From Patescibacteria group bacterium (GTDB lineage: Bacteria > Patescibacteriota > Patescibacteriia > GWA2-46-9): a stretch of DNA of 64,000 nucleotides. A program made the position numbers and the translations under genes. Below the pieces are notes generated by a model. That model did no database searches, was not told the origin of the DNA, and saw only the letters and a list, made by a program, of their open reading frames with translations. This document shows positions 18,679 through 54,209 of the stretch, piece by piece (the first letter of the stretch is position 1; every line of letters begins with the position of its first letter). Location: NCBI GenBank assembly GCA_041675205.1, contig JBAYUF010000001.1:20863-84862 (forward strand), read 5' to 3'.

Positions 18679-21600
18679 GTGCATTTTTTTCTGATAAGAA
18701 AGCAAGCTGGTATAAGGAGAAGGATTTCGTCCTTTGTGATTGTTGTTGCGCTTGTGGTAACTGGTTTTACGCCAGGGAACATTCTTGCGGCAACAGGGGT
18801 ACCGAACATTATTAATCATCAAGGGAGGTTACTTGACGCAAGTAGCAACCTCATTGGCGGCTCGGGGACAAATTATTGTTTCCGCTTCTCTTTATATTCA
18901 GATACAACGGTTGGTGCGCCTGATACAAAATTGTGGCCATCCGGCACCCCCTCGACCATGACGGTTGAAGTAAAGAATGGCATTTTCAACGTTGGTATTG
19001 GCGACACGGCAGCCGGCGGCGACACGTTAGATTTTGATTTTCAGACAACAGACACAAGCTACTTGAACGTTGAGGTTGCGCCACAAGTTTCAAGTTCTTG
19101 TGTCGGTGTTAGTTTTGAAACGCTTAGCCCTCGGCAACGGGTGGTTGCTTCAGGCTACGCCATCAACGCAGAAACTGTTGGTGGTTTTACTCCCGCGCAG
19201 TCCGCCACAGGCAGTCAAATTCCTGTGCTCACCTCCGGCAATCTATTTCTTGGTGGCACAAACCCGCAATTAAATGTTACTGGTGCGAACACGCTCACGT
19301 TGCAAGGTGGTGCCGGGACTGGTGCCATTCAATTTTTTTCTTCCTCAAACGCCATCACGTCGGCTGGTGCGCTAACTATTGCGGGGGTCTTTGATACCGC
19401 GAGTACTCTGCAAGCCGGTTCCAGTAACGTAACACTTACCCTCGCAACCGGTTTTATCGATGCCGACGCATTAACACTGTTCGCCGGTGCAGATGGAGCA
19501 AGCGCAACAACGTCTACTGGTTCAGGCCTCGAAGCGGCTGCTGATGGGCTTAGCTTATTGCAAGGGTGTAGTGATTCTGAGGTATTGAAATGGAATGAGA
19601 CGACCGATGTCTGGGCGTGTGCGGTTGACGCTACTGGCGGTTCAGCGTCACTCCAAGGAGCGTACGATGGCGGTGCCGCCATTACCTCTTCAAACGCTCG
19701 TGACCTGGCCTTTACTCTGGCCAACACAGCAACTGATTCTAATTTTGCAATTTCTATTGCCGCCGATTCAACCTCAACCGTATCAATTAGCCGTGCCGAT
19801 GGTGGCGCCACAAGCCCCGCCCAGCTTTTCTTACTTGATAATCTTGACACCGATACCGCGCAACCCATTGCTCTTAAAATTCAGTCCTTGGCTGGAACTA
19901 TCACTACTGCCCTCGATGTATCTGACGCCGAGATTGGTACTGCTCTGGCAATTGGGTCAAATAGTATCACGACGAGTAGCGGCACTATTGCAGCAACCGA
20001 ACTTGATCGTCTAACAGGCAAAGACGCACCACTCGTTGACACCAATGATGCAGTTGCCACCGCCATCACTGGCACAGGCACCATCACTTCCGGCATCTGG
20101 AACGCCGGGGCGGTGACATCTTCGGGCGCCATTCAGGGCACCACGCTGACCGCCACTGCTGCTGGTGGCGTTATTCTGCAGAACGCAGAAACCATTACGA
20201 ACGCCATTGATGGCCTCATCACCTTCACTCGTACAGACGCCAACGCCGACACCATCAGCATTTCCCCAGCAACCGGTGGCGCCGCGACGTTTGCCGGTAT
20301 CTTCACCTCTGCCGACCTCACTGCTGACCGAACATGGACTCTGCCAAACGTTTCTGGCACGGTCATCACCACTGGCGACACCGGCTCAGTGACGAGCGCC
20401 ATGATTCTAGACGGCACCGTAGCAAACGGTGATCTCGCCGCTGGTACGTTCACCAACATCACTGGCACGGGCGCCTTAGATGCTGGTTCCATCACTGCTA
20501 ACTTTGGTGCCATTAACGTTGGTGCCGACAGCATCACCGGCGGCGCTATGCAAGGAACATTCCTCACCGCCACAACCGCTGCTTTCGGCCTCGTCATTGG
20601 CACTGGAGTGAACGCCACCACGCTTTCCTCCACCGCTAGCGCCGCCCGTGCCATCTCTTTCCCGGATGTGGCCGGCACACTCATTAGTACTGGTGACACC
20701 GGCACCGTCACGAGCACTATGATTCTGGATGGCACCGTGGCGAACGGCGACTTAGCCGGCTCCATTGCCGCTTCTAAACTTGTGGGTTCCGATATCGCCG
20801 CCGTTGGCACCATCACCTCCGGCATCTGGAACGCCGGGGCAGTGACATCTTCGGGTAACATTGATGCCACCGGCACACTGCAAGCTGGGTCATCGAACAT
20901 TACTATCACCGTTGCGGCTGGGTATCTTGATGGTGATGCTCTGCAACTTACCAATGCTGGTGCCGGTGCCACCTCCTCTAATTCAGGACTTGAAGTTATT
21001 TCTGATAAGATCGGGCTCCTCCAAGGTTGTTCTGACGGAGAGATATTAAAATGGACAGAAGGCACGGGGGTCTGGGCGTGCGCAGTGGATGGTGGTGGAG
21101 CTGCTGGAGATAGCGTTTCAATTAATGGTTCGGCAACGACCGACAGTAATTTTATTGATGTGGTTGCTTCAGCGACTGCCGCGGCTATCAATTGGAGTTT
21201 GAATACAGTACCAGCTCCAGACGAAATTTCTTTAGCGATTGGTGCTGCTTCCGGTACTGACGCTGGTATAGTAACCGCCAACGCTCAAACACTTGGTGGA
21301 ACAAAAACATTTGCTAATGGCCTCACCATCACTGCCGGCCAAACATTCACCATGAACAGTGATGCATTCACCGACCTCACTGGCACAAATCTTGAAGTTG
21401 CGTCAAACGCGCTTCGTGTCATTGCTAATCCTACGTTTTCAACCTCAGTTACAACTCCTCTACTGCAGTCGGCCGATAATGGTTCGACATTAACACTTAA
21501 CATGCCGGTAAGCGGGGCTGATGCTGGTGCACACACACTTGCTCTTCAAGTTGATGGGAACACCGCTATCTCGGTAGCGGCGACGGGGGACGGCGCCGGT

Positions 21601-24231
21601 GCAGTTGGTGCTCGAACGATTCAAGTTGGTGTTTCGTCTGCTGCGGACACCATTACCATTGGCGACGCCAATGCAGACGTTTCACTAACTGATGCCAACT
21701 GGTCGGTCAGCGCCGCTGGTGCCGCCAGTTTTACTTCGGCCCTCGTGAACGGCACGCTCACGCTGCAAAATAGTGAAACACTTTCTACCGGTACTGACGC
21801 CACATTCCTCTTTGGTCGAAATGATACCGGCACCGTAACCATAACTGCAGCTGACGACGACAGCACGGCTGCGCTCACCATTCTCTCTGGCGGCGCTGCC
21901 GCACTTGGACTCGACACTGGCGGCGCTGCTGCGGTGAATATTGGTAACACGAACGCTACATCAGTATCGCTCTGCAACAGTGCTGCTTGCGACACAATTG
22001 AAATTGGCACCAACACCGACGCCGATACCATTACCATTGGTGAGGCTAATGACAACGTTGCTATAACTGATGCCCAGTGGAGCATCAACGGGAGTGGCGC
22101 CGCGAGTCTCGTTACTGTAGTTGGCTCGACCTCAGTTAGCTCTCCAATTTTCACGTCAACCGGCTCCATCGCGATTAAGCCTGGCGCAAATGCCGTAACG
22201 GCAATCCAAATTCAGCAGACGGATGGTACGAATATTTTGAACGTTGACACCACCAATAAACGTATTGGCATCGGTAATGCGGCCCCTGATTCCGTGCTCC
22301 ACATTACTGGCTCAACGGCCGGCAATGGTGCCACAGCCATAGCGGGCATGAAGTCATCGCTCACCATTAACCCTTCGGGTGGCGGTTATCAATTTGGTAA
22401 TCGTATGGAAGTGTCGGTGGCGAACACCTCGACCGCCACAACTGCTGATGGTCAATTTATTCGTATGACCGACAATACGGGCCTCGCCAATACGGTTCGT
22501 GCCCTTGAAGTTCAAGCTGATGGCGGCACCAACACGACGGGCGTAAACACTGGTGTCATTGCCTTTGGAAAAACGTTTGGTATTCAGGGCGTTACCTACG
22601 GTTCAGCCGCCGGTGTTTCGGTGCCGGCCGGCGTGTATGCGGAAACCGCCGGGACGGCGAATGGAAATGCGCTCAGAGCCTATAGCGCCACCATTACTTC
22701 TGCCGATCTTGTTAGTTTTTATACCCAAAGCAGCGTGTTAACCGGCAATGGTTTAACCATGGACTTAGGGAATGTTGGAACTGGCTCAGGTAGCTTTTCC
22801 GGTAATTTTGTCAGCTTAAAAAATGCGAGTGTTAGTAAATTTACCGTTGATGACGACGGCAGCACTTTTGTTAGCTTGACCGGTACGGCTACCACGAATG
22901 GGCTTTGTCACACCTCTGCTGGTGACGCGACAAATGACGAAATCGTTGATTGCTCAGGCGCCCCTTCAGACTTAGCCGAAAATTTTGGTACCACTGACCC
23001 AACGATTACCGCCGGAGATGTCGTTGTCGTAACTGGTACGGCAACTGTCGCAACGGTTGACGGTCTGTTTACCACAAAGGCATGGGTGGAGAAGTCGACC
23101 GCTGCGTATGCCCGTTCGGTCATCGGCGTCATCTCGACACAACCAAACCAACTGTATGCAGACAATGTATTTTCGGAAGCAGAAAATCCACGCCCGGTAA
23201 CCTTGGCTGGTCGAGTGCCAGTTAAGGTGAGCACACAAAATGGGGCAATCCAAACTGGCGATCTCCTGACGTCTTCATCGATTCCCGGTGTGGCCATGAA
23301 AGCCACGCAACCGGGCATGGTGCTTGGGCAAGCGTTGTCAGGGTTTGACGGTAGCGACATCGGAACAGTCATTACTTTTATTGCTCCGTTCTATTTTGAC
23401 CCCACAACGGTTGTTGATCCGGATGGTAATGTGACCGTGCAGCGCGGTGCAGCAACGACAACGTTGTTGGTTGATGCAGTGACAACCGCTTCCATTATTA
23501 ATCAACAAGGAAGCGGGGACTTGCTGCAGTTGCAGACTGACGGGGTAAATCGCTTACTCGTACAAAATGATGGCGCGTTTTCGTTAAATGTTCTGACGAC
23601 CGATATGACCCTTCCGGTCTTTAGTGTTCAGAATGCCGACACAACGTTACTGACATTGAACGCCCAAGGGGATCTGGCACTCCGCGGCGTACTCGTTATC
23701 GAGAACGATAGTTTCGCTGGCAGCATTGACACCGATGCCACTGGCGAAGCTCGCATTGATTTTGAATACTCGCTTGGTACTGGTAAGCCAGTGGTGCAAT
23801 TAACCGCCGAGGGCGAAATGCCAGTTCACGCGCAGGTGCTTCGTTTACTGCAAGATGAACAGGAAAATTATACAGGGTTCGTACTACGCACTACGTCGCT
23901 TGACGGGGCATTAGTAAGCGGCGCCACGGTGCACTATTTGGTTATTGCTAAACCGGCTGACTATGCGCCCGTGGGCATAAATGAGAGTACGTCGATTGTT
24001 GTCTATGATGCGCCAGCGACTAGTCAAGAAATTACCAACGTCCCGCCAGTAGAAGAAAGTGTAGTGGTGGAGAATGAAGAGGCGGTTACCGATGTTGAAT
24101 CGGTCGAATCAGTAGAGGGTACGGATACTGTTACTCCCGAGAGTGTAGCGACAGTCGAACCAGAAGTTCCGAGTGCAGAAATTGTGGCACCAGCAGATGA
24201 ACCAGTTGTCGAAATAGTTCCCGAAAGTTGA
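18679..24231 (+). CDS. Giant secreted/surface protein (1850 aa): T/G/S/A-rich, N-terminal anchor, internal duplication, acidic C-terminus
   Basis: N-terminal hydrophobic segment ISSFVIVVALVVTGF. Repeated motifs GTITSGIWNAGAVTSSG (x2), GDTG(S/T)VTS(A/T)MILDGTVANGDLA (x2) and LLQGCSD(S/G)E(V/I)LKW.E.T.VWACAVD (x2). The C-terminal 60 aa are rich in E and V. The antisense ORFs inside are low-complexity artefacts. Confidence 0.7.
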   Translation: MHFFLIRKQAGIRRRISSFVIVVALVVTGFTPGNILAATGVPNIINHQGRLLDASSNLIGGSGTNYCFRFSLYSDTTVGAPDTKLWPSGTPSTMTVEVKNGIFNVGIGDTAAGGDTLDFDFQTTDTSYLNVEVAPQVSSSCVGVSFETLSPRQRVVASGYAINAETVGGFTPAQSATGSQIPVLTSGNLFLGGTNPQLNVTGANTLTLQGGAGTGAIQFFSSSNAITSAGALTIAGVFDTASTLQAGSSNVTLTLATGFIDADALTLFAGADGASATTSTGSGLEAAADGLSLLQGCSDSEVLKWNETTDVWACAVDATGGSASLQGAYDGGAAITSSNARDLAFTLANTATDSNFAISIAADSTSTVSISRADGGATSPAQLFLLDNLDTDTAQPIALKIQSLAGTITTALDVSDAEIGTALAIGSNSITTSSGTIAATELDRLTGKDAPLVDTNDAVATAITGTGTITSGIWNAGAVTSSGAIQGTTLTATAAGGVILQNAETITNAIDGLITFTRTDANADTISISPATGGAATFAGIFTSADLTADRTWTLPNVSGTVITTGDTGSVTSAMILDGTVANGDLAAGTFTNITGTGALDAGSITANFGAINVGADSITGGAMQGTFLTATTAAFGLVIGTGVNATTLSSTASAARAISFPDVAGTLISTGDTGTVTSTMILDGTVANGDLAGSIAASKLVGSDIAAVGTITSGIWNAGAVTSSGNIDATGTLQAGSSNITITVAAGYLDGDALQLTNAGAGATSSNSGLEVISDKIGLLQGCSDGEILKWTEGTGVWACAVDGGGAAGDSVSINGSATTDSNFIDVVASATAAAINWSLNTVPAPDEISLAIGAASGTDAGIVTANAQTLGGTKTFANGLTITAGQTFTMNSDAFTDLTGTNLEVASNALRVIANPTFSTSVTTPLLQSADNGSTLTLNMPVSGADAGAHTLALQVDGNTAISVAATGDGAGAVGARTIQVGVSSAADTITIGDANADVSLTDANWSVSAAGAASFTSALVNGTLTLQNSETLSTGTDATFLFGRNDTGTVTITAADDDSTAALTILSGGAAALGLDTGGAAAVNIGNTNATSVSLCNSAACDTIEIGTNTDADTITIGEANDNVAITDAQWSINGSGAASLVTVVGSTSVSSPIFTSTGSIAIKPGANAVTAIQIQQTDGTNILNVDTTNKRIGIGNAAPDSVLHITGSTAGNGATAIAGMKSSLTINPSGGGYQFGNRMEVSVANTSTATTADGQFIRMTDNTGLANTVRALEVQADGGTNTTGVNTGVIAFGKTFGIQGVTYGSAAGVSVPAGVYAETAGTANGNALRAYSATITSADLVSFYTQSSVLTGNGLTMDLGNVGTGSGSFSGNFVSLKNASVSKFTVDDDGSTFVSLTGTATTNGLCHTSAGDATNDEIVDCSGAPSDLAENFGTTDPTITAGDVVVVTGTATVATVDGLFTTKAWVEKSTAAYARSVIGVISTQPNQLYADNVFSEAENPRPVTLAGRVPVKVSTQNGAIQTGDLLTSSSIPGVAMKATQPGMVLGQALSGFDGSDIGTVITFIAPFYFDPTTVVDPDGNVTVQRGAATTTLLVDAVTTASIINQQGSGDLLQLQTDGVNRLLVQNDGAFSLNVLTTDMTLPVFSVQNADTTLLTLNAQGDLALRGVLVIENDSFAGSIDTDATGEARIDFEYSLGTGKPVVQLTAEGEMPVHAQVLRLLQDEQENYTGFVLRTTSLDGALVSGATVHYLVIAKPADYAPVGINESTSIVVYDAPATSQEITNVPPVEESVVVENEEAVTDVESVESVEGTDTVTPESVATVEPEVPSAEIVAPADEPVVEIVPES

Positions 24232-24263
24232 GTTTCGCCAGAGCGTATACTAGTTGCGTTAGA

Positions 24264-24288
24264 AAGACGGCAGCCAGCCGTCTTTTTT
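24264..24288 (+). terminator. Rho-independent terminator
   Basis: AGACGGC-agcca-GCCGTCT followed by TTTTTTG. Confidence 0.7.
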
Positions 24289-24370
24289 GCTATTGAAAAA
24301 AGTTGAGAAACGTGTTACAATGTATGCAGAAAATCAAAAAAATAAAGAAAAAATCAATATTATTACTTTT

Positions 24371-27300
24371 ATGATACAACGTTTTCTTGGCGGTCACCTT
24401 TTTCATACAGCAGAGGAGTTGGCGGTAGGCCGAAAAGTTTCGGCTAGAAATTTTGAAAATTCAGTAACGGCTAAATCTTACTTAGCTCGTTCGTTTTTTG
24501 TCGTTGGGTTACTTGTGGGTCTGGGTTTTATTTTTGCCGCGCCGACGCCAACCTATGCCGCAGCAAAAACATGGGATGGTGGCGGTGGTTGTGGCTCCGG
24601 CACGAACAGGTACGCATCCTGCGCAGGCAACTGGAATAGCAACACACTCCCAGTAGACGGGGATTCAATTAATTTTACCGATACAAATGGGTCGCAAGAA
24701 TTCTTATGGGACAATAATACATACGGGACCCTGCCAACAACGGTTGCCTCCTTTACTACCAACTACTATGGCTCAACAAACACCCTAACATTTCAGAAGT
24801 CATTAACAGTTACCGATGAATATCACGCCACGTCTAGTGCAGATAATGTAACGATTAATAGCGGGGTTACGCTAACGGCCGGTTATTTTTTTATAACAGA
24901 TGCAACGGTTACAAATAATGGAACGATTAAATTTACTTGTACCTACGGCACCACCTGTGGCGGGACTAGCCATGACGCTGCATTTTATGGTTCTGGCGCA
25001 CTTGCCTCATCAGCTTCAACTTCAATTGCTGAATATGCAGGTACAAATCAACCCGTATATAACGCCAATTATTACCATCTAAAAATATCTGGAACAGCCG
25101 TTAACTACGGTTTTCAAATTGCAAGTAATGGTCAAATATCAGGGAGCGGGACACTAACAGCTGGTACGGGGACAACCACGTTTAGTGGTAGCGGTACCAT
25201 CAATCTTCCTAACGCTGGATTTACAACGTTGTGGGTAGGTACCAGCGGTACGTTAACAGTTAATCAGAATATTTCAGTGTCAACTAGCATTGGTGCGGGT
25301 CCGTTTACTAGTGGGAATACAATCACCTACGGGGGTACTCCGACCCTCACTATGACCGGCGGTACAATTGCCGCAGCTTCTGTGGCAACCATGAATCTTT
25401 ATAATGTAACCATCGCTGGTGCCGGAGTGACCAGCACAGGGACCCCTAACATTGCAAACGCGTTTGTAGTTAATTCTGGAGCGACCTTTAGTGGTTCTAT
25501 GGCGAAGACCGGTGGTTCAATAACGAACAATGCTGCGACATCGAGCGCCCTAACGATTACGACCCTAGCGCTTACTTCAGGCACGATAACCACTGGTTCC
25601 AATTTTGATTTGTCGACGAGTATTTCTGGGGCGGGGAATTTCACTGCCTCGGCAGGTACCATTACCATGACCATGACAAGTGGCACGGCGATAGCAGCGG
25701 GTGCCGGCACACTGACATTCAATAGCGTTGCTATTGCTTCTGGCGCCACCGTTGCAACAGGTCGTAATTTTAGTGTGGCCGGTAACTGGACGAATAGCGG
25801 CGGAACATTTACGCCAAGCACGTATACCGTTACGTTGAGTGGGGCGGGCGGTTCTACCCAAGTCATCGCAGGTAATACAACCTTTTATAACCTTACGGCG
25901 ACAGCTGCTGCGGCTCGCACCATTCGATTTACCGCTGGCACTACCACTACAGTAACTGGCACGTGGACTGTCACTGGTTCAGCTTCTCAGTTAATAACTT
26001 TACAGTCTTCAACGACGAGTGCTTGGACTATTAACCCCACTGCGGCAAGCGTAAGTTACGCAAGCATTTCTTATTCGACCAATACCGGCGTGGCATTTTG
26101 CGCTACCTATTCTACCGACGGCGGCAATAACACAAGCTGGTCAATTGGAAGTGCCGCCAGTTGCGGCGCAACGATATCTGGTACGGTGTATTCGACCGAA
26201 GGTGGAGCAGGCATCACCGGCACACCAACGGTGCGTATTAAAGTAAATGGTGCTGGCACGTATAGCACAACGGCTAGTAGTGGCGTATTTAGCGTTTCTT
26301 CTGTCGTTGTAAATTCAGGCGATGTAATCACTGTCTATTTGGACACTAACGGTGGTAGCTCAGCAGCCCTCGTTACGGTTTCTGATGGTAGTAATACGTC
26401 GAGCCTCTCCCTCTATCAAAATCAGTTGGTCGTTCGTTATGAAACTGGTTCATCCATAACGAATACGAATCTTGGGCAATACGACAAGGATAACGATTCA
26501 GACATTCATTTTACTTCCAATGCCGGTGTACTGACCGTTGATAGCGATTACGAGTTGCATATTTGGACGGGTAAGACATTTGCACCAGGTGGCACCGTCA
26601 CGGCTAATGGCGATGTGCACATTATGGGTACCTATACCGCACCAGCGACTACGACCGTGGCTGGCAGCTTCACTAACGCTGGTACTTTTACTCCCGGCAC
26701 GGGAACACTGACCTTGTCTGGTACGAGTAAACAAATTACTGGTACCCCAACCAGTGAATCGTTCTATGACCTAACCATTTCAGGCACTGTAGCAAGTACT
26801 CGTAGTTTCACTGTTTCGCACACCATGACCGTAAACGGCACCTTTACACCAGGAGCAAGCGACGTTGTTACCTTAACGGGGGCAACGCTCACGGGGTCGG
26901 GGACAGTTAAAGTTACAAGAACGACAACTATCCCAGCATTCGTTAATCAATATGCCTACACCACCCCAGCGCCAACCTTAACAAATTTGACGGTTGACTA
27001 CAGTGGTACTAGTCAAATAGTAACGAACCTAACGTATTCGAACCTCATCGTTTCCGGAACTATTACAACAGGAACGCAAACAGCAACAGTGAGTGGACTC
27101 TTTACTGTTTCGGGTACGTTTACTCCATCAGCCGGAACGATAACGTTAAGTGGGACAAGCGGCACTGTTTTAACCGTCAGTGGTACACATGCACCAACCG
27201 GCACGGCTACGACCGTCTACAGTGGCGCCAATGCTGGCGGCAATACAAACGTTGCAGCGGCTACCTACAACAACCTTCAGGTGACCGGCGCTGACACCTA

Positions 27301-29998
27301 CGACCTCGCTGGGGACACAACTGTTTCGGGTGTCCTTACTATCGGCGGCTCAGCTACGCTCGACGGAAAGACTCGTACCATCACCCTCTCCGGCACTTCT
27401 GGTACACCCTTCGTCAAAACTGGTACCTTCACTCCTTCAACCTCAACCGTTGTCTACAGTGGTGCCAATGCTAGCAGTAACACCAACGTTGCAGCGGCCA
27501 CGTACAACAACCTCCAGGTTACTGGTAGCGACACCTACGACGTAGCAGGAGACACAACTGTTTCGGGGGTCCTTACTATTGGCGCAAACGCCACCCTAGA
27601 CGCCCAAACATACACAGTAACGCTATCTGGTTCTGGTACACCACTTGTAAAGACAGGTACATTTACCGCTTCAACCTCAACCGTAACGTATAGCGGTAGT
27701 TCACCTACCATTGCAGCGACTACGTATAACGTCTTGAATCTGTCTGGCTCTGGCACAGCAGTATTGCCGAGCGGTACCCTGGCAGTACTAGACTTAAATG
27801 TAACTACTGGAACAGTTTCTGCCGCGAGCAATAACCCAACCATTAACGTCAGTGGAAACATTGCATTGTCGAGTGGTGTTACCTATACAAAAGGTTCTGG
27901 TACTACGACGTTTTCTGGTGCCTCGAAGACAATTACTGACAGTACGGCTAGCGCACAGGATTTGGGTGTAGTTTCAATTTCTGGGACCTATGCTCTCTCG
28001 TCGAATGCTAAAATGACCAGCGTAGCCGGAGCCGGAGCATTAACAACGAATGCCAATACCCTAACGTTGACCGGTTCTGGTACCGTTTTGTCTGTTACGA
28101 CATTTACCGCTTCGACTGGTTCTACGGTTACCTATACCAGCGGAAGCGGTGCTTCTGTTGGTGCAAGGACCTACTACAATCTGACCATCAATGGTACGGG
28201 TACGTTCGCTGCGGCGGGTGCTATCATTGTGAATAACGATCTGACGGTGACCAGTGGAACCTTGGCCATGGATACGAGTAACCTACAAGTTGGTTTATCG
28301 AGTATCTCAAGTTCTGGTAGCGTTAAGGTTGCGGCAAGTCAATCGCTCACTCAATCAGCCAGTGGGACCACAACAATTCTTAGTTCGTCAGCCGGAGCAA
28401 ATTGTATTGGCTCCAATGGCTCCAATTGCAGTGGGACGGCAGGAACAATTACTCTTGGTGGCTTGTCGATTGGGGATGGAGTGTCAGGCAACTTCACAAC
28501 AACTCTTGCCGGAGATGTCACTATTGCTGGTGTCCTCACTATTGCTAGTACAAACACGCTCGACGGTTCGACTCGCACCATAACCCTCTCTGACACCTCT
28601 GGTACACCGTTCGTGAAAACCGGTACCTTCACCCCTTCAACCTCAACCGTTGTCTACAGTGGTGCCAATGCTGGCGGCAATACAAACGTTGCAGCGGCCA
28701 CGTACAACAACGTCCAGGTTACTGGTAGCGACACCTACGACGTAGCAGGAGACACAACTGTTTCGGGTGTCCTTACTATCGGCGCCTCGGCCACGCTCGA
28801 CGGTTCGACTCGCACTATCACTCTCTCCGGCACCTCCGGTACACCTCTTGTCAAAACCGGTACCTTCACCCCTTCAACTTCGACCGTTGTCTATAGTGGT
28901 GCCAATGCTAGCGGTAACACCAACGTTGCAGCGGCTACGTATAATAACCTCCAGGTTACTGGCAGCGACACTTACGACGTAGCAGGGGACACAACTGTTT
29001 CAGGGGTCCTTACCATTGGCGCCTCAGCCACGCTCGACGGTTCGACTCGCACTATCACTCTCTCCGGCACTTCTGGTACACCGCTTGTCAAAACCGGAAC
29101 CTTCACTCCTTCAACTTCGACCGTTGTATTTACTGGTGACAATGGTGGTGGAACAACAACCATTCCAACAGCAACCTACTACAATCTTACAGTGAACAAT
29201 GCGAGCGAAACGTATGCGCTTGGTTCGGGGAGTCCAGTGGTGAACAATGATTTAACTATTACTGCCGGTACCCTTGACCTCGACGCAAGTGACCCGTCGC
29301 TCTCAGTAAAGGGAGACGTGGTAATTGCCGGTACGCTCCTTGGTTCGGCTAGTAGCCCCCTCAATGTTGATGGTGACTGGACCAACAATGGTACATTCAC
29401 TCATTCAAACGGTACCGTTGCATTTACGAACAGTGCGGGGTTACTGGAAACGTCAAATATTGGTGGCTCAAACGGTACGAACTTCTACTCACTCAGCGTC
29501 ACTGCGAATGGAAAGTATCTTCGATTTGCGGCCGCCAAAACGTTTGGGGTTGCTGGTGTGCTGACGATTACGGGTGGTCAAGCTATTCCCGACAACATTC
29601 GTATTTTCTCAAGTACTGTCGGGGCTGGTTCAAGTAGTGATCAGTGGCTGCTTAATCTCACTGGTTCCTCGAATGTTCTCTTCGCGATTGTTCAGAACGC
29701 TGGCTGTGCGCCAGGGTCAAGTTCTGTGGCCTCGCACTCAACGAATACAAACGCCGGGAATAACAGTGCGTGTTGGCCCTTTGGTGTTCCTGGAGCGCCT
29801 GATGTGACTGGTGGTCGTTTTGATCAACCCGGCGGGGGTACGGCTACAACCGGCGGTACAAGCCTTAGTGGAGGTATTAGTGGTGGCGGAGGCGGTGGCG
29901 GAGCACCAAGTCCTGACCGACTTGATGAACCGGGTGGTGGCGCACCGACAACGGGTGGAACTGATCAAGGAAGTGGTGGTGGAGCACCTGCTCCGTAG
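24371..29998 (+). CDS. Giant surface repeat protein (about 1875 aa) with an N-terminal anchor and at least 5 copies of an 80-aa T/S/G-rich module
   Basis: Hydrophobic SFFVVGLLVGLGFIFAA. Repeated module TRTITLSGTSGTP(F/L)VKTGTFTPSTSTVVYSGANA..NTNVAAATYNN.QVTG.DTYD.AGDTTVSGVLTIG. Gly-rich C-terminus. The start is uncertain: the ORF-track 24287 and the ATG at 24320 both overlap the upstream terminator and a TGtTACAAT -10, so 24371 is plausible. Confidence 0.65.
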   Translation: MIQRFLGGHLFHTAEELAVGRKVSARNFENSVTAKSYLARSFFVVGLLVGLGFIFAAPTPTYAAAKTWDGGGGCGSGTNRYASCAGNWNSNTLPVDGDSINFTDTNGSQEFLWDNNTYGTLPTTVASFTTNYYGSTNTLTFQKSLTVTDEYHATSSADNVTINSGVTLTAGYFFITDATVTNNGTIKFTCTYGTTCGGTSHDAAFYGSGALASSASTSIAEYAGTNQPVYNANYYHLKISGTAVNYGFQIASNGQISGSGTLTAGTGTTTFSGSGTINLPNAGFTTLWVGTSGTLTVNQNISVSTSIGAGPFTSGNTITYGGTPTLTMTGGTIAAASVATMNLYNVTIAGAGVTSTGTPNIANAFVVNSGATFSGSMAKTGGSITNNAATSSALTITTLALTSGTITTGSNFDLSTSISGAGNFTASAGTITMTMTSGTAIAAGAGTLTFNSVAIASGATVATGRNFSVAGNWTNSGGTFTPSTYTVTLSGAGGSTQVIAGNTTFYNLTATAAAARTIRFTAGTTTTVTGTWTVTGSASQLITLQSSTTSAWTINPTAASVSYASISYSTNTGVAFCATYSTDGGNNTSWSIGSAASCGATISGTVYSTEGGAGITGTPTVRIKVNGAGTYSTTASSGVFSVSSVVVNSGDVITVYLDTNGGSSAALVTVSDGSNTSSLSLYQNQLVVRYETGSSITNTNLGQYDKDNDSDIHFTSNAGVLTVDSDYELHIWTGKTFAPGGTVTANGDVHIMGTYTAPATTTVAGSFTNAGTFTPGTGTLTLSGTSKQITGTPTSESFYDLTISGTVASTRSFTVSHTMTVNGTFTPGASDVVTLTGATLTGSGTVKVTRTTTIPAFVNQYAYTTPAPTLTNLTVDYSGTSQIVTNLTYSNLIVSGTITTGTQTATVSGLFTVSGTFTPSAGTITLSGTSGTVLTVSGTHAPTGTATTVYSGANAGGNTNVAAATYNNLQVTGADTYDLAGDTTVSGVLTIGGSATLDGKTRTITLSGTSGTPFVKTGTFTPSTSTVVYSGANASSNTNVAAATYNNLQVTGSDTYDVAGDTTVSGVLTIGANATLDAQTYTVTLSGSGTPLVKTGTFTASTSTVTYSGSSPTIAATTYNVLNLSGSGTAVLPSGTLAVLDLNVTTGTVSAASNNPTINVSGNIALSSGVTYTKGSGTTTFSGASKTITDSTASAQDLGVVSISGTYALSSNAKMTSVAGAGALTTNANTLTLTGSGTVLSVTTFTASTGSTVTYTSGSGASVGARTYYNLTINGTGTFAAAGAIIVNNDLTVTSGTLAMDTSNLQVGLSSISSSGSVKVAASQSLTQSASGTTTILSSSAGANCIGSNGSNCSGTAGTITLGGLSIGDGVSGNFTTTLAGDVTIAGVLTIASTNTLDGSTRTITLSDTSGTPFVKTGTFTPSTSTVVYSGANAGGNTNVAAATYNNVQVTGSDTYDVAGDTTVSGVLTIGASATLDGSTRTITLSGTSGTPLVKTGTFTPSTSTVVYSGANASGNTNVAAATYNNLQVTGSDTYDVAGDTTVSGVLTIGASATLDGSTRTITLSGTSGTPLVKTGTFTPSTSTVVFTGDNGGGTTTIPTATYYNLTVNNASETYALGSGSPVVNNDLTITAGTLDLDASDPSLSVKGDVVIAGTLLGSASSPLNVDGDWTNNGTFTHSNGTVAFTNSAGLLETSNIGGSNGTNFYSLSVTANGKYLRFAAAKTFGVAGVLTITGGQAIPDNIRIFSSTVGAGSSSDQWLLNLTGSSNVLFAIVQNAGCAPGSSSVASHSTNTNAGNNSACWPFGVPGAPDVTGGRFDQPGGGTATTGGTSLSGGISGGGGGGGAPSPDRLDEPGGGAPTTGGTDQGSGGGAPAP
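27211..27710. repeat. Tandem array of about 240-bp units (2+ copies) inside the giant gene
   Basis: Direct repeats at about 90% nucleotide identity that encode the 80-aa module. They are related to the second array at 28520-29140. Confidence 0.8.
28520..29140. repeat. Second tandem array of about 240-bp units (about 2.5 copies) inside the giant gene
   Basis: Near-identical units starting near 28560, 28800 and 29040. Confidence 0.8.
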
Positions 29999-30019
29999 AA
30001 GGTATAAAGAGTAGACGAA

Positions 30020-30056
30020 GAAGTTGGGTGCCAGTGGCACCCAACTTCGTTTTTTG
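30020..30056 (+). terminator. Rho-independent terminator
   Basis: GAAGTTGGGTGCC-agt-GGCACCCAACTTC followed by GTTTTTTG. Confidence 0.75.
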
Positions 30057-30108
30057 AAAAAGAAATGCTACACTTTCTTTACATTATTAATTTTTTGCTA
30101 CTTGAATT

Positions 30109-30582
30109 ATGCCGATTTTACGAACGGCGCCAATGAGCAGTGACGATAGTCAGCAGCGCCAATTATCGCGGCGAGGATTGCGTTCACTATTCACAACATT
30201 TTTACTCGTCATAGGTGTGTTGGTTGCTGGCTACGCCGCCTACGCAGTGAATGCAACGGGTCCATTCCCGAGTCGCGGCAAATGGCAAGCCGTCTTTTTG
30301 GCCAACGGCCAAGTGTATTTTGGAAAGTTGTCTGGGATAAATCGTCGTTACGTCACCCTTTCCGATATCTACTACTTACAGGTATCACAGGGGTTGCAGC
30401 AGGCAGCCACACCGGAAGGTGCGCCACCACAAGGACAGCCAAACATAAACTTGATTAAGCTTGGTCAGGAGCTTCACGGACCGGAAGATGCCATGCACAT
30501 TGAACGAAGTAAAGTTTTGTTTTGGGAGAATTTGAAAGACGACAGTCGGGTGGTCGAGGCAATTTCCCAGACCAAGCAGTAA
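30109..30582 (+). CDS. Hypothetical membrane-anchored protein (157 aa)
   Basis: Single N-terminal TM helix LFTTFLLVIGVLVAGYAAYAV followed by an extracytoplasmic domain with no recognised motif. Confidence 0.45.
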   Translation: MPILRTAPMSSDDSQQRQLSRRGLRSLFTTFLLVIGVLVAGYAAYAVNATGPFPSRGKWQAVFLANGQVYFGKLSGINRRYVTLSDIYYLQVSQGLQQAATPEGAPPQGQPNINLIKLGQELHGPEDAMHIERSKVLFWENLKDDSRVVEAISQTKQ

Positions 30583-30618
30583 GCGGTTTGCCAGAACGGC
30601 AGCCGGGGCTAAGGTAGT

Positions 30619-33600
30619 ATGAACAGGCAGTATGGTAAGCCGCTGTTTCTGTTGCTCTCAGCGGTGTTTACTGTCTGTACTACAAGTGCTGCCCTTGGGA
30701 TTGATTACAGTAGTACCAGTTTTATATTGCGCGATCCTGTCGTGAGTGTTGGTGGTGGATATTCCTCTTCTTCTAGTTTCCAGTACACCAGCGTTCTTGG
30801 CCAAACAGTTATTGGTGAAAGCACCGCCGCGTCTACGATTGGTCGGTTTGGTTTTTTGTACTTCCCTTCGTTTATAACCGCCCCTCTCGTAACGCCAGTG
30901 GCTGGAGTTGAAGAAGTGGTGCTCTCATGGACGGCAGCTTCAGGAACGGTGGCCGTAGACCACTATGAACTTGGCACAGGAACTATTTCCGGTAGTGAAA
31001 CGTATCAGAACGTAGGGAGTGTGCTTACGTTCACAAAAACTGGACTCACTGGTGGTACGCTCTACTATTTTACCGTTCGAGCAGTGGATGCTACGGGCGA
31101 GGTACTGCTTACCTCGTCTGAGGTAAGTGCCACGCCCACCGCAACGACGACTCCACCGCCTTCGACTCCGACCGGTGGTGGAGGCGGTATTATTCCGTCA
31201 ACAGTAGGTGATGCGGCGCTTCCAGCTGCACCCCGCGCACAATTTGGTGAAGCGTTGGATACGGAAACTATTCGTTGGTATTTTTTTGATAGAGCAAATA
31301 ACGAAACTGGTTTTCAAATTCGAGACAGTGACGCCAACATCCGTGCCACGACACCACCGTGGGTAACAGAAGACAGTACGTATCTTGATGAAACTAGTTT
31401 AGCGGCAAACGTCGTGGCGGCAGGTCGGCGAGCGTATGCTACCAATGTGGCTGGGGTATCCGCCCCCTCAGACGTCTATGCTCCAGTGTATACGGCAATA
31501 GAAAGACCAGTGGCGCTCGAAAGTATCCTTACTGACGGCGTCCTCTACCTACGAGCCTCTTCAGAAGGGTACAGTGGTGGGTTCAGTAATATGAGTAGCG
31601 GCCGTTCAGGGTTACTGTTTGAAGATGAGACGCACGGCATTGCTTCGGGCTGGGTAAAGGCTGAGACATTCGCCTTTGCAAGTTTACCGAGCGGTACGTA
31701 TCAGTTTCGGGTTCGAGCTCGGAATGGTGACGGCATAGAAACGAATACGAGCGCTTCCATTGCAGTAGTCGTGCCCCCGTATACTCCGCCAGTGGATGCC
31801 GAAAAACCAATCATAGAAATTGTATCGCCTGCGAACGGCGCAACGATTACCACCGATACGCTCACTATTACTGGACGAACAAAGCCCGGGGCACGAGTAA
31901 CGCTTCGGTATGGAAATGTGGAAACCTTTACTGTTGCAGGAAGTAACGGTATTTTCCGTTTCACTTTAGCGAATCTAAAAAATGGTACACAGCTGGTGCG
32001 TTTCATGGCACGAGCGCAGAATGGTGCAATGAGCGATAGTGTTTCTCTTACCTTTGTGGTAGCGCTCCTTGATGATGAACCGGAAGTACCAACGGTAGTT
32101 ACGCCTGAACCGCCAACAGAAGTACCCCCTGGTGTCATCATTCCGCCTCGTGTTCCAGTGGAGCTGCCTGGACTGCCAACCCTGCCGCGTATAGAAGGAT
32201 TGCCTGAAAATATTGTCGACGGTAGTAAGGTAGTTACTGGGGCTATTAAGGCGGTACGTGATTTTCTTAATGTCGAAGCTCCGGCCGCAGTCGCTCAGCT
32301 AGGTAGCGATGTTCGTTCCTTGGCGTCACGGGTAACAAGACCAACCTTGGCGCCGGTTGTTGCATTAGCTCGTTCTGTTGCTGCATCGGTCCGCGCTCGA
32401 GTGGCACTGGTGGCTGGTGAATTCCGTATTGGAGTTCGCTTGGTTACACGCGACGCGCCACGGGCATTCAGTAGTGCTTTCCGTACCTTTGCCGAGTCGA
32501 CAGCGAATATATCCTTCTTCAAGAGCACTCAACCACCATATCTTGCCCGACTTTTTTTCTTCGCTCGCGCCGAGACTATACGTTCTATCGCGCAGCTCCG
32601 CGCATTCCGAGGGGTCTTCGTCCAGGGACTGCCAACGTTCGGTCGTGAGGTGCGGCAGCTCATTGTCGCCGTCAGTAAGCGTCTCCCCCCTGAAGAAACT
32701 AGTGCTGACCCCCTTATTGTGATGGTAATGCGCACTATTCGTGAAGATGTGCTCGTTGCTAGTACTGTTGCTCGTATGGTCGGTTCTCGAGCGGTAGTGC
32801 AAGTACCGGTGGCGCTGTCTGTTGCGCAGACGACGGTGCGTTCACTCTCTCCCGCACCGTACCTTCGTCAGGCATTTGAGCAAGGAACCCAAGATTTCTT
32901 GGCTGTTATCAGTGCCGCATTGCGAGCTGGCGATACTGCTCGTGAACGGCTGATTCTTTTGGCACGAGCATTGTCACCAGTACCTGCCGTGCGGCAGACC
33001 GTGGCACAGCTGCGACTTGATGCCGTTGCCTTGGCAGATGCCTTTGCCGTTAGTACGCGTAGCATCGTTACTGATACGAGAACGACAATTGGAGAATATC
33101 AGACAGCCGCGCAAGCTTTGGCCGCCGCCGTCACCCTACCGGATGTCGTAATTGATACGGAACAATTCCAAACCATCATTGCTTCTTATCTGACTGCGGG
33201 CACGGAAGCAATCACTCGAACGGGTACCTTTTTCACTACCGACGTTCCGAATATTGCCCGTACCTTTGTGGGTGATGTGCGGGTAGCTATTCGTCCGCCA
33301 AGTCGGGAGTCAATTATCGGATCCGGGCCGGACTCAGCTTCGCCGTTGGTTGCCCTGGTTCGTCCTCGACCAACCGAGGTGCCGTCAGCGCTTCCCGTTG
33401 ACAGTGTCGTGGCAAAATCAAATTTTGGAAACGTGACGTTATTGGCAGCAGAAGATACGGCTTTGCGACTTCCGGCTGGGTATAGTTTTAAATTATTTGT
33501 TCGTCCGTCGAAGCCAGTTACGGAGATTACCGGTGAACTTATTTTGACCGCAGCGCAGGGGAGTACAGACGTAGAGGATGTACCAAGCAATCTATTCTTA

Positions 33601-34155
33601 CGTATTCCCGCTGCCCAAGCAGCGGTCATAGCCCCCGTTGAGGCCCTGGCTTTGTCGGTCGCAACGTTTCCATACCGCCGTACAGAAACGGGTATTTATG
33701 CCGCCTATGCGAGTGTCCCCCCGCTTATTGGTAGTTATCAACTACTGACGCATCTGGCGTATGCTGATGGCACAGAGCGGACCATTGCTCGTGAAATTGA
33801 AACCGAGAGTTCAGGGTATCTCTATGCCATAACCGATCGCGGTCAACAAGAACGTATTCGTGGGGCCGTCGTTTCACTTCGAGTTGAACGTGAAGATCAA
33901 TCAGGTTTTGTTTTGTGGCCCGGCCCACTGTTTGATCAAAAGAATCCAGTCAAAACTGATGAAACCGGTGCCTATCAGTTTTTGCCGCCACCAGGGACGT
34001 ATCAACTACGTATTGAGCATCCAGATTATGAGTCTTATGAATCGGAGGTTATTAGTCTCGAATTTACCTCGCCGATTGCTCGCCCGATTGCGCTTACCCC
34101 GAAGCCACGAGGTTTCCTTGAGATTATCTCAGGGGCCATTCGCGATAGTCGCTAG
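30619..34155 (+). CDS. Large secreted protein (1178 aa) with a fibronectin-III-like domain and a C-terminal carboxypeptidase-regulatory-like (CarboxypepD_reg) domain
   Basis: Signal peptide KPLFLLLSAVFTVCTTSAA. FN3-like region VLSWTAASGTVAVDHYELGTG...LYYFTVRAVD. C-terminal ETGAYQFLPPPGTYQLRIEHPDYESYESEV in a CarboxypepD_reg-like fold. Confidence 0.6.
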   Translation: MNRQYGKPLFLLLSAVFTVCTTSAALGIDYSSTSFILRDPVVSVGGGYSSSSSFQYTSVLGQTVIGESTAASTIGRFGFLYFPSFITAPLVTPVAGVEEVVLSWTAASGTVAVDHYELGTGTISGSETYQNVGSVLTFTKTGLTGGTLYYFTVRAVDATGEVLLTSSEVSATPTATTTPPPSTPTGGGGGIIPSTVGDAALPAAPRAQFGEALDTETIRWYFFDRANNETGFQIRDSDANIRATTPPWVTEDSTYLDETSLAANVVAAGRRAYATNVAGVSAPSDVYAPVYTAIERPVALESILTDGVLYLRASSEGYSGGFSNMSSGRSGLLFEDETHGIASGWVKAETFAFASLPSGTYQFRVRARNGDGIETNTSASIAVVVPPYTPPVDAEKPIIEIVSPANGATITTDTLTITGRTKPGARVTLRYGNVETFTVAGSNGIFRFTLANLKNGTQLVRFMARAQNGAMSDSVSLTFVVALLDDEPEVPTVVTPEPPTEVPPGVIIPPRVPVELPGLPTLPRIEGLPENIVDGSKVVTGAIKAVRDFLNVEAPAAVAQLGSDVRSLASRVTRPTLAPVVALARSVAASVRARVALVAGEFRIGVRLVTRDAPRAFSSAFRTFAESTANISFFKSTQPPYLARLFFFARAETIRSIAQLRAFRGVFVQGLPTFGREVRQLIVAVSKRLPPEETSADPLIVMVMRTIREDVLVASTVARMVGSRAVVQVPVALSVAQTTVRSLSPAPYLRQAFEQGTQDFLAVISAALRAGDTARERLILLARALSPVPAVRQTVAQLRLDAVALADAFAVSTRSIVTDTRTTIGEYQTAAQALAAAVTLPDVVIDTEQFQTIIASYLTAGTEAITRTGTFFTTDVPNIARTFVGDVRVAIRPPSRESIIGSGPDSASPLVALVRPRPTEVPSALPVDSVVAKSNFGNVTLLAAEDTALRLPAGYSFKLFVRPSKPVTEITGELILTAAQGSTDVEDVPSNLFLRIPAAQAAVIAPVEALALSVATFPYRRTETGIYAAYASVPPLIGSYQLLTHLAYADGTERTIAREIETESSGYLYAITDRGQQERIRGAVVSLRVEREDQSGFVLWPGPLFDQKNPVKTDETGAYQFLPPPGTYQLRIEHPDYESYESEVISLEFTSPIARPIALTPKPRGFLEIISGAIRDSR

Positions 34156-35211: not shown

Positions 35212-35350
35212 AGATATGCAAGAGTATAACATAGCCATTAGAATTGCCGATGTGATACTAATGACGTATAGTTTTGGGGCTTACAATAGTCCGGTTTGTT
35301 CCGATAATTGGCAGTTACTGTACTGCCCTACACCGAGGAAGTGACACCAC

Positions 35351-50231: not shown

Positions 50232-50236
50232 ATAAT

Positions 50237-51709: not shown

Positions 51710-51719
51710 CTAGCAGTTT

Positions 51720-53240: not shown

Positions 53241-53248
53241 TATTTAGT

Positions 53249-54193: not shown

Positions 54194-54209
54194 CAATTAA
54201 TTTCGAATC

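Follow-up and report, generated by a model that had tools for sequence, protein, structure and literature searches.

The 64-kb stretch of DNA analysed here, in the following called the window, stems from the metagenome-assembled genome of an ultra-small Patescibacterium that is related to Candidatus Uhrbacteria, and it contains four consecutive same-strand (+) genes, p1 to p4, that fill 15.5 kb of it (18679-34155). We think that these genes probably constitute a Sec-dependent surface adhesion-fibre locus, which would serve to stick to other cells. Three of them, p1, p2 and p4, encode very large proteins that are referred to as the giants, and p3 encodes a small membrane protein that lies among them. 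An earlier note on this DNA had proposed an apparatus for cell-surface attachment, for host interaction or of an S-layer type. Surface attachment or host interaction is the best reading also after the present analysis, because the proteins possess Sec-type N-termini and match no enzymes, because relatives contain adhesin and tail-fibre modules, because p4 is of the FN3/Ig type, and because the locus is syntenic in other genomes. For the S-layer part of that proposal there was no positive evidence, as neither an SLH domain nor another anchoring domain was found. The protein families of p1 to p4 are uncharacterised and the p1 family is undescribed; literature searches did not find a description of it.

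The locus is genuine and chromosomal. Positions and sizes of the open reading frames (ORFs) are as the earlier note had given them (Table 1), and the proteins are found in identical form in several public sources, namely ENA, NCBI, JGI and Logan. The exact p3 protein is encoded on a 213-kb ENA metagenome contig with the gene order of the window, and exact p2, p3 and p4 are encoded on an NCBI contig of 246 kb that bears the label 'Patescibacteria group bacterium'. NCBI names p2 and p3 'hypothetical protein' (WC052_00240 and WC052_00245) and p4 'fibronectin type III domain-containing protein'. Independently of these, a 967-bp JGI contig spans p3 and the start of p4. These exact copies and the independent contig, together with protein-level homologues and syntenic orthologues, rule out that the ORFs are artefacts of frameshifts in low-complexity sequence, a possibility that the earlier note had raised itself. 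Its assumption of a reduced-genome organism agrees with the patescibacterial source. Each of the four proteins has a single hydrophobic segment, which is always N-terminal, so that the giants indeed carry the Sec-type signal or anchor that had been ascribed to them. The extreme bias for T, G, S and A, which had been attributed to all giants, was confirmed for p1 (48% of residues) and p2 (55%), but p4 reaches only 37%. For p1, p2 and p3 nothing was found above the curated cut-offs of Pfam or NCBIfam and no PHROGs family was matched; p1 and p2 do not match any PDB sequence, and the PDB matches of p4 are of the FN3 type only. Searches of Pfam, NCBIfam, PHROGs and PDB sequences returned no enzyme family for the giants and no homology to intracellular enzymes, as predicted, and leave the idea that p1 to p4 could be enzymes unsupported.

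The locus is a conserved chromosomal one. Upstream, it is flanked by the core neighbours rmuC, a Wzy_C-like gene, groEL and a DUF4870 gene, and downstream follow a convergent manC-like gene, tRNA-Cys, polA, holA and infB, while the GC content of the locus is like that of the rest of the window. The order groEL-DUF4870-p1-p2-p3-p4-manC-tRNA-Cys-polA was found again in Candidatus Uhrbacteria bacterium CG10_big_fil_rev_8_21_14_0_10_48_11 (GCA_002793855.1), whose PolA is 58% identical. Its contig PFET01000001.1 carries, in the order of the window, the C-terminal part of p1 (56% identity), p2 (52% over 1060 amino acids, aa), p3 (69%), p4 (44%), manC (56%) and polA (58%). At the end of PFET01000008.1 there are an M23/LysM gene, rmuC, a roughly 305-aa ORF, wzy, groEL (78%), a roughly 165-aa ORF, DUF4870 and then p1 with its N-terminal part (67-73%). 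The p1 orthologue of this genome is divided over these two contig ends (L007 on PFET01000008.1 and L004 on PFET01000001.1), since its repetitive middle broke the assembly. The repetitive middles of the giants break short-read assemblies, and therefore family lengths and repeat copy numbers in the databases are lower bounds. A third genome, the JGI metagenome-assembled genome Ga0376277_0001943, contains the stretch from p2 to polA, with the C-terminal part of p2 (63%), p3 (64%), p4 (44%), manC, tRNA-Cys and polA (57%). The comparison of relatives that the earlier note had suggested thus revealed synteny over the whole locus in one genome and over part of it in another. The conserved modules of the giants diverge approximately at the rate of PolA and the central parts cannot be aligned between orthologues, which argues against both an artefact and a mobile element.

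The protein p1 belongs to a large family that, judged by its members, is restricted to the Candidate Phyla Radiation (CPR). A search of 5.8 billion proteins gave 229 matches at E<=1e-5, and the best 120 of these are 1000-3200 aa long; the named ones are all from Patescibacteria (Paceibacterota, Nomura-, Peregrini- and Parcubacteria, Minisyncoccia). With a pattern-seeded scan that used one genome per species, relatives of the p1 N-terminal region were detected in 156 species genomes, nearly all of them titled Patescibacteria or unnamed bacterium. A minority bears other titles, several times 'uncultured Gammaproteobacteria' and, on short contigs, Vicinamibacterales and Acutalibacteraceae, and these look like mislabelled or mis-binned records.

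Residues 1-240 of p1 are common to more than 100 relatives, with about 60% identity and always at the N-terminus of the relative. As the homologues align from residue 1, GTG 18679 is taken as the start of p1. In 94 sequences of the family, a basic stretch is followed by about 20 hydrophobic residues, an A-x-A-like site and then G-V-P-x-x-x-N-x-Q-G-R-L, and this invariant GVPxxxNxQGRL motif is located at median residue 41. Because of the A-x-A-like site before the GVP motif and the lack of a C-terminal anchor, p1 is predicted by inspection to be secreted with a cleavable signal peptide and not to be anchored by it. A C-terminal membrane helix was found in none of the 120 relatives and an LPXTG-like motif in one of them; p1, p2 and p4 themselves contain neither an LPXTG motif nor a C-terminal hydrophobic segment. 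Behind the signal peptide, residues 44-154 (approximately) were modelled by AlphaFold2 (AF2) on a 32-sequence alignment as a confident beta-sandwich, with a predicted local distance difference test (pLDDT) score of about 85-93. Foldseek returned weak Ig-like and macroglobulin-like similarity to PDB entries and nothing significant among viral models, none of it at E<=1e-3, and a profile of the N-terminal alignment did not match the PDB.

The middle of p1, 950 aa between the conserved zones, is largely private to this protein. It is followed by the conserved C-terminal block and by an all-beta module that we name DLAE after its conserved residues and that is common to about 84 of 118 relatives, with invariant D, A and E and an invariant GRV.V. 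The AF2 model of the DLAE module has pLDDT values of about 50-84 (10-residue block means), and the module did not match a Pfam family above cut-off, PHROGs or the PDB. We considered a diverged S74 or phage decoration domain, for which there were sub-threshold Pfam matches only (Phage_cement_2, 0.0085; XM1_gp53, 6e-4) and nothing in PHROGs or the PDB, and rejected it. The DLAE module is also present in a stand-alone 274-aa protein (L005, 4212-5036), which is encoded directly upstream of a Saccharimonadales ATP synthase operon. Close to the C-terminus of p1, a second predicted beta-sandwich (aa 1678-1756) may, on the weak evidence of the model, be a candidate binding tip. The top Foldseek matches of the C-terminal part, all sub-threshold, are mostly phage tailspikes, tail fibres and R-pyocin fibre tips, together with an H-type lectin of Helix pomatia. 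Profiles of the p1 alignments found nothing in the PDB, PHROGs or viral contigs, and for the C-terminal alignment the PDB gave no match even at E<=10. As regards the beta-helix modules of the earlier note, the AF2 models of p1, which are monomer models and have low confidence in the shaft regions, show all-beta structure only.

The cysteine-containing motif that the earlier note had seen twice in p1 is present at aa 293-317 and 780-804 and reads LLQGC-x(4)-[IV]LKW-x(7)-W-x-C-x-x-D. Both copies lie within an internal duplication (aa 226-343 and 716-828) whose halves are 50-54% identical. The motif is not an oddity of this one protein, as it had seemed, but a recurrent module of the p1 family that occurs in 37 of the 120 relatives, with up to 10 copies per protein; in two relatives with 9-10 copies, the spacing is about 289 aa. 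Copy 1 was modelled as short beta-hairpins (AF2, pLDDT 52-76). The two cysteines, which are present in every listed copy, probably form a disulfide.

Relatives of p1 differ in the domains that follow the shared N-terminus. Peptidase_S74, which serves endosialidases and tail fibres as an intramolecular chaperone, was found above the Pfam cut-off in three proteins that share the p1 N-terminal domain (P0030, P0078 and P0113). Others carry DUF5907 or Gly_rich_2, the latter above the Pfam cut-off, and H_lectin was seen below cut-off. Precomputed Pfam assignments of p1 relatives add Laminin_G_3, LVIVD, collagen, YadA head, Kelch and beta-helix/NosD.

The second giant, p2, is not a paralogue of p1: a 'similarity' of 22-24% appeared only with the composition correction switched off, and the N-terminal motif and the Cys motif of p1 are both absent from the p2 family. 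The hydrophobic segment of p2 lies at aa 65-89 of the maximal ORF, and the signal peptide ends near PTYA/AAKTW (24542-24562). When the last 1200 aa were searched against 1.84 billion cluster representatives, 1516 clusters were matched at E<=1e-3, 221 of them at E<=1e-30; lengths among the best 150 relatives run from about 400 to 7700 aa, and the median T+G+S+A content is 50%. Self-comparison revealed two blocks of tandem units of about 79 aa, and Tandem Repeats Finder reports for 28555-29144 a period of 237 bp that is present in 2.5 copies, with 89% matches. Approximately the last 340 aa are 58-63% identical in the two syntenic relatives and are often aligned to the C-terminal end of family matches. 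In p2 and five scanned relatives, Pfam gave no meaningful match. A beta-solenoid fold of p2 is plausible from the repeat pattern. Like autotransporter-type or PATR beta-solenoid passengers, p2 is very long, T/G/S-rich and built from tandem units, and its W-D-G-G-G...N-W after the signal peptide recalls the same passengers, by sequence pattern only. In contrast to them, p2 has no PATR, autotransporter or pectate-lyase match and no beta-barrel anchor. Patescibacteria are not known to have an outer membrane. The C-terminal beta-barrel anchor and the head and stalk repeats of YadA-type trimeric autotransporters were likewise not matched in p1 or p2 by Pfam or NCBIfam, and the ends of these proteins are low-complexity tails.

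The small protein p3 contains a single membrane helix (aa 23-49), and its C-terminal part is a conserved domain of about 100 aa (WQAVFL.NGQVYFG...LHGPED...FWE). As basic residues precede the helix, the N-terminus would be inside the cell and the 100-aa domain outside. The p3 family comprises 4189 clusters at E<=1e-3; the named matches are all from CPR bacteria, including Uhr- and Liptonbacteria and Saccharimonadales, and none has a Pfam family. It has 26 invariant positions, among them those of QAVFL.N.QVYFG, KLG.ELHGP and FWE, and nothing was matched in the PDB below E 0.4 or in NCBIfam below E 0.008. The description of p3 as a membrane-anchored protein among the giants was correct, but the protein is CPR-wide and not specific to this apparatus. 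On a Saccharimonadales contig (L005), a p3 homologue (10001-10450) directly follows the ATP synthase operon and no giant genes are nearby, and for this reason p3 is not dedicated to the locus. That it is a dedicated partner of the giants is only partly true, since p3 is linked to them in Uhrbacteria and in several Paceibacteria-type loci but not in Saccharimonadales.

The third giant, p4, was recognised in Pfam by fn3 (aa 99-168, 33.6 bits, cut-off 25), Y_Y_Y (350-385, 29.6, cut-off 26.6), Big_6 (408-478, 28.1, cut-off 27.6) and CarboxypepD_reg (1072-1147, 49.7, cut-off 32.3), which bears out the combination of FN3 and carboxypeptidase-regulatory-like folds that had been read from its sequence. 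With its hydrophobic segment at aa 8-28, p4 is best described as a predicted FN3/bacterial Ig-like multidomain protein with an export signal. It also matches the PHROG 'central tail fiber J' via its FN3 domain. Full-length matches were obtained for the two syntenic orthologues only, to which p4 is 52-78% identical in aa 51-400, 8-40% in the centre and 48-66% in aa 901-1150. The first 135 aa or so, which comprise the signal peptide, the N-terminal module and the start of the FN3 domain, are widely recurrent. Pfam did not detect a dockerin in p4, and the protein has no C-terminal membrane helix.

The genes that accompany p1-like genes elsewhere in CPR bacteria were counted in 34 loci in which the p1-like ORF ends inside the locus. 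Downstream of it, p3 was found in 6 of the 34 loci, and 12 loci contain another small membrane protein, which has about 140 aa. In 11 loci there is a protein of about 175-450 aa whose N-terminus is the p4 N-terminal module, and 7 of these proteins have a dockerin-like tail (Dockerin_1 below the Pfam cut-off). Six loci encode a cohesin-like protein that is about 300 aa long and anchored by a C-terminal membrane helix (the reference copy has Cohesin at 32.4 bits, cut-off 24.1), and again six encode a protein of about 340 aa that has such a helix at its C-terminus and gives weak Ig/fn3-like matches only. Two loci (L049 and L058) combine p3, the 140-aa protein and the C-terminally anchored protein, and L058 additionally contains a p4-module protein. 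The linkage of p3 to p1-like genes probably exceeds chance, because a single-copy p3 in a genome of about 1 Mb would be expected within 7 kb downstream in less than 1% of cases. It thus appears that a set of small membrane proteins and of tethered FN3 proteins recurs alongside p1-like fibres, and the co-occurring domains suggest cohesin-dockerin tethering of surface proteins in CPR bacteria. The window would hold the Uhrbacteria-type version of this cassette, with p2 inserted and with a p4 that lacks the dockerin; no cohesin-like, chaperone-like or pilin-like gene resembling the cassette proteins of other loci was found in it.

Some CPR loci are worth describing individually. In L061 (16877-19561) and L011 (17146-19862), the p1-like giant is followed downstream by an approximately 140-aa membrane protein, then by a p4-module/FN3/Big_6/dockerin-like protein and then by a cohesin or cohesin-like protein of about 300 aa that is anchored by a C-terminal membrane helix. 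A related set in L006 (10507-14031) adjoins a p3 homologue (10001-10489), and there the dockerin-like protein is followed two genes on by a Cohesin-domain protein. In L076 (13150-16569), a 944-aa p1-like gene precedes p3, a protein of 450 aa whose N-terminal module is p4-like, and two tandem proteins (340 and 350 aa). The latter two have membrane helices at their C-termini and match Ig/fn3-like domains or WxLIP_PGBD weakly. No PDB sequence was matched by the chaperone-like and pilin-like proteins of this locus.

How these proteins could work together can be sketched as follows. All four products would be exported by Sec, as judged from their N-termini. After signal-peptide cleavage, p1 would form a long mosaic fibre with the N-terminal beta-sandwich next to the cell, a variable, all-beta and T/G/S/A-rich shaft with interspersed Cys-hairpin modules, and a far end at which the DLAE module and the distal beta-sandwich may bind a ligand on another cell. 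Both this polarity and the binding are proposed by analogy with the MAT fibres of Bdellovibrio and with phage tail fibres. The protein p2, a giant repeat protein that is not related to p1, would probably be a rod of beta-solenoid type or an adhesin, and p3 and p4 could reside at the membrane or wall and help to keep the fibres in place or in order. The p4 counterpart of other CPR lineages would be tethered via its dockerin to a membrane-anchored cohesin. The genes, their export signals, the family memberships, the modular build, the synteny and the gene linkage are findings, and display on the surface, a trimeric state, ligand binding, retention on the cell and the roles of p3 and p4 belong to the proposal.

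In the MAT (mosaic adhesive trimer) fibres of Bdellovibrio, a signal peptide is followed by an N-terminal domain of about 130 aa that is conserved and beta-rich, by a trimeric beta-helix shaft and by variable adhesive tips, and their superfamily has subfamilies with and without Peptidase_S74 (PMC10769870). The p1 family resembles the B. bacteriovorus fibres in layout: in p1 and more than 100 relatives the signal peptide directly precedes an N-terminal domain that is conserved and beta-rich, the predicted shaft is long and beta-rich, the distal domains are swappable and members with and without S74 exist; both organisms must recognise other bacteria. On the other hand, p1 has no sequence similarity to the MAT fragments in the PDB, is about twice as long, contains the Cys-hairpin and DLAE modules and comes from a Patescibacterium, which should lack an outer membrane. 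By this analogy, p1 would be a MAT-like member without S74. With the tail fibres and tailspikes of phages that use an S74 chaperone, and with R-pyocin fibres, the family shares a modular all-beta build, exchangeable tips and, in relatives, S74 and Gly_rich_2, whereas p1 lacks S74, is encoded by a chromosomal syntenic gene without phage context and has no PHROG match and no relative in the scanned viral contigs. For p4, the closest comparison is with surface proteins of Saccharibacteria. Transposon sequencing of a cultivated Saccharibacterium showed that surface-associated proteins with FN3, VCBS and dockerin domains are needed for epibiotic growth as essential components, and the authors speculate that host-cell glycans are targeted (PMC10633639). 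The succession of N-terminal module, FN3 and Big_6 in p4 is that of dockerin-tailed CPR proteins, but p4 has no dockerin, the window has no cohesin, and a divergent A/R/V-rich region of 400 aa and CarboxypepD_reg take their place.

A wider reading of these parallels is tentative, and we regard it as possible rather than probable. The p1 family would represent, as a superfamily spread over the CPR, mosaic and probably trimeric fibres for host recognition, the counterpart of MAT and phage tail fibres, and would form a Sec-dependent attachment cassette together with its partners, i.e. p3, the second small membrane protein, the dockerin/cohesin-tethered p4-module proteins and the C-terminally anchored helpers. 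The distal modules would set the host range in episymbiotic CPR bacteria, and fibres would have new building blocks in the Cys-hairpin and DLAE modules.

Several observations weigh against an adhesion-fibre locus. Neither p1 nor p2 has detectable homology to a characterised adhesin or fibre in Pfam, NCBIfam, PHROGs, PDB sequences or PDB profiles, and p1 itself has no S74 domain and no Pfam match at E<=0.1. The C-terminal 656 aa of p1 (aa 1195-1850) are poorly modelled by AF2, with a mean pLDDT of 45, and Foldseek did not match them to the PDB at E<=1e-3. The window does not reveal a mechanism by which the fibres would be retained: known ways of anchoring by LPXTG, a C-terminal membrane helix, SLH or a dockerin were considered and none was found on the giants, nor is there a cohesin. 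Also, p3 is not tied to giant genes in Saccharimonadales.

Instead of fibres, p1 and/or p2 could form an outer coat, i.e. an S-layer or wall coat, for which p3 and p4 would be the anchors. Secreted T/S/G/A-rich proteins without enzyme domains would suit a heavily glycosylated coat, synteny extends to the flanking Wzy_C-like and ManC-like genes, and the locus is stable and not an island. However, no SLH or other known S-layer anchoring domain was detected with Pfam and NCBIfam, the middle regions cannot be aligned between orthologues, and the large range of lengths (about 1000-3200 aa in the p1 family and 400-7700 aa in the p2 family), together with swapped modules that include lectins and S74 chaperones, is adhesin- or fibre-like and not lattice-like, so that we consider such a structural envelope unlikely. 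A connection to the Pam pili has also to be considered. These CPR-specific pili consist of Sec-exported pilins that are joined by donor-strand exchange; PamC and PamD are PapD-like chaperones with a C-terminal membrane helix, PamR is an FN3 anchor protein that has an additional N-terminal strand, and a protein resembling a tail fibre as well as ATP synthase genes are reported to lie consistently beside pam operons (bioRxiv 10.64898/2026.03.03.709456). In this case p1 would be the pam-adjacent 'tail fibre-like protein' and p4 a PamR-like FN3 terminator or anchor whose N-terminal module acts as donor strand. It fits that a DLAE-module protein and a p3 homologue flank the ATP synthase operon of Saccharimonadales and that some CPR loci carry p3, a p4-module protein and tandem C-terminally anchored proteins of about 340-350 aa after p1-like genes. 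More generally, both are CPR surface-filament genes with Sec export and without a dedicated secretion machine, and p1-like neighbourhoods contain proteins that, by description only, look comparable. Those beside p1-like genes, including the L076 set, resemble the described pam neighbours and PamC/PamD, and this comparison by description is a lead, towards a rival or an extension of the fibre reading. The window, though, has no pilin-like or chaperone-like gene and belongs to a different lineage, as Pam pilins were reported mainly from Saccharimonadia and Microgenomatia and not from Uhrbacteria; moreover, the candidate proteins of L076 are without a PDB sequence match and p4 is without a C-terminal membrane helix. 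A role as pilus accessory is therefore improbable in our view.

Secreted giants could also be effectors directed against host cells, such as beta-helix polysaccharide lyases or polymorphic toxins. One p1 relative contains Beta_helix/NosD domains, and giant proteins of predatory Omnitrophota have been linked to cell-wall degradation (bioRxiv 10.1101/2023.11.21.568195). As p1, p2 and p4 have no catalytic or toxin domain and their C-terminal ends are low-complexity tails in place of toxin modules, degradative or toxic effectors seem very unlikely. A phage origin, be it prophage tail fibres, a tailocin-like or a decoy system, is suggested by Peptidase_S74, Gly_rich_2 and the below-cut-off H_lectin of p1 relatives, by the weak fold matches to phage fibre tips and by the match of p4 to the PHROG tail fiber family through FN3. 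This explanation is largely refuted and hardly credible any more: there is no other phage gene nearby, the flanks are groEL, polA and infB, the gene order is kept at a PolA identity of 57-58%, the GC content is that of the window, PHROGs contains nothing for p1 and p2, and pattern-seeded scans with the p1 N- and C-terminal alignments of 2.9 million viral contigs found no relative. A prophage was rejected on the basis of these core-gene flanks, the synteny across genomes and the lack of relatives in viral contigs.

An adhesion-fibre locus would be of interest since most Patescibacteria are thought to be attached to other microbes. To our knowledge, almost nothing is known about the means of this attachment outside the Saccharibacteria. 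Giant secreted proteins are familiar in CPR genomes, so that their bare presence is unsurprising; what counts here is that the family and its cassette are defined and that they parallel the recognition fibres of predators and phages. With p1, a concrete candidate family of attachment fibres is at hand that has one conserved 'base' domain in more than 150 species genomes, and its distal modules and partner genes are candidates as well. If the fibres determine the choice of partner, the tips could be used to predict or capture the hosts of uncultivated CPR bacteria, the N-terminal domain of p1 could serve as a metagenome marker for the apparatus, and the CPR-wide, unannotated p3 family would gain a context. 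If they are only generic coat proteins, the finding is an ordinary one.

The genes are likely organised in three transcription units, p1, p2 and p3-p4, since strong terminators follow p1 and p2 and none separates p3 from p4, which are probably co-transcribed for the latter reason. The earlier note had assigned each giant gene its own strong terminator; this is correct for p1 and p2, but 3' of p4 there is only a weak hairpin (z -0.6) that adjoins the stop codon of the convergent manC. Three starts come into question for p2: the maximal ORF from 24287 (1903 aa), ATG 24320 (1892 aa, the ENA call) and ATG 24371 (1875 aa, the NCBI call MFA7286088.1). Judged by the sequence, ATG 24371 fits best with the promoter-like site at 24293-24321. 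The coordinates of all features of the locus are compiled in Table 1.

Table 1. Genes, protein modules and transcription signals of the p1-p4 locus (window positions; aa, residues of the respective protein).
Feature	Position	Strand	Description	Basis
p1	18679..24231	+	1850 aa, GTG start; secreted mosaic fibre-like protein (predicted)	ORF and homologues
p1 signal peptide	18679..18792	+	basic n-region, hydrophobic core (aa 18-38), then ..ILA/ATGVP	by inspection
p1 family-defining N-terminal domain	18793..19398	+	aa 39-240; beta-sandwich core at about aa 44-154	homologues and AF2
Cys-motif module, copy 1	19555..19629	+	LLQGCSDSEVLKWNETTDVWACAVD	
Cys-motif module, copy 2	21016..21090	+	LLQGCSDGEILKWTEGTGVWACAVD	
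p1 conserved C-terminal block	22261..22968	+	aa 1195-1430	about 30 relatives; AF2 confidence low
p1 'D-L-A-E' (DLAE) module	22969..23394	+	aa 1431-1572, conserved all-beta domain	alignment, AF2
p1 distal beta-sandwich	23710..23946	+	aa 1678-1756, candidate binding tip	AF2, pLDDT about 54-80 (10-residue block means)
p1 acidic low-complexity tail	23986..24228	+	aa 1770-1850, rich in V, E, P and S	composition
Intrinsic terminator after p1	24261..24289	+	GC-rich stem, then six U; -17.7 kcal/mol, z -3.3	
Promoter-like site for p2	24293..24321	+	TTGAAA-17-TACAAT, TG extension; 10/12 consensus positions	consensus match only
p2	24371..29998 (maximal ORF from 24287)	+	about 1875 aa, secreted repeat protein (predicted)	ORF, NCBI call
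p2 repeat block 1	27032..27757	+	aa 916-1157, units of about 79 aa, 57-84% identical	self-comparison
p2 repeat block 2	28481..29326	+	aa 1399-1680, units of about 79 aa, up to 96% identical	self-comparison
p2 conserved C-terminal module	28964..29995	+	about aa 1560-1903; Cys pair (NAGC...CWPF), Gly-rich tail	
Intrinsic terminator after p2	30020..30056	+	13-bp stem with 8 G-C pairs, then six U; -24.2 kcal/mol, z -5.9	
p3	30109..30582	+	157-aa membrane protein	ORF
p4	30619..34155	+	1178 aa, secreted FN3/Ig-type protein (predicted)	ORF, Pfam
p4 N-terminal module	30697..30888	+	about aa 27-90; SSTSF..GGG.SSSSSFQY..GQ..G....GFLYF	recurrence in CPR loci
p4 divergent central region	32116..33318	+	about aa 500-900, rich in A, R, V and L	no family match

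The Wzy_C-like gene, which is O-antigen ligase/polymerase-like (14299-15642, +), and the ManC-like GDP-mannose pyrophosphorylase gene (34159-35238, -) are both kept in the Uhrbacteria synteny, and one may speculate that their presence is compatible with a glycosylation of the Thr/Ser-rich giants. Further upstream, two secreted proteins for wall remodelling are encoded, one of 651 aa with a SpoIID domain (5345-7300, -) and one that is a LysM-LysM-M23 peptidase (11045-12340, -), and the gene of the latter is also syntenic in the Uhrbacteria genome.

The tRNA-Cys gene between manC and polA is present in the window as one clean copy (35351-35425). In the JGI relative (L003, 10462-10812), repeats of about 100 bp precede it, in which the tRNA 5' end is present once more as a partial copy (GGCGCCGTGGCGAAGTGGTAACGC).

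Elsewhere in the window, 48678-55181 (+) contains three tandem paralogous ORFs of 517, 490 and 506 aa, in which only a C-terminal PEP-utilizers mobile domain is recognised and the N-terminal part of about 400 aa is unannotated. This stretch has a low GC content of 39-43%, compared with about 49% elsewhere. The tandem ORFs are followed by an unannotated 295-aa ORF and then by a stand-alone PPDK_N (ATP-grasp) protein, and the arrangement looks like a split or expanded system of the phosphoenolpyruvate (PEP) synthase or PPDK (pyruvate phosphate dikinase) kind.

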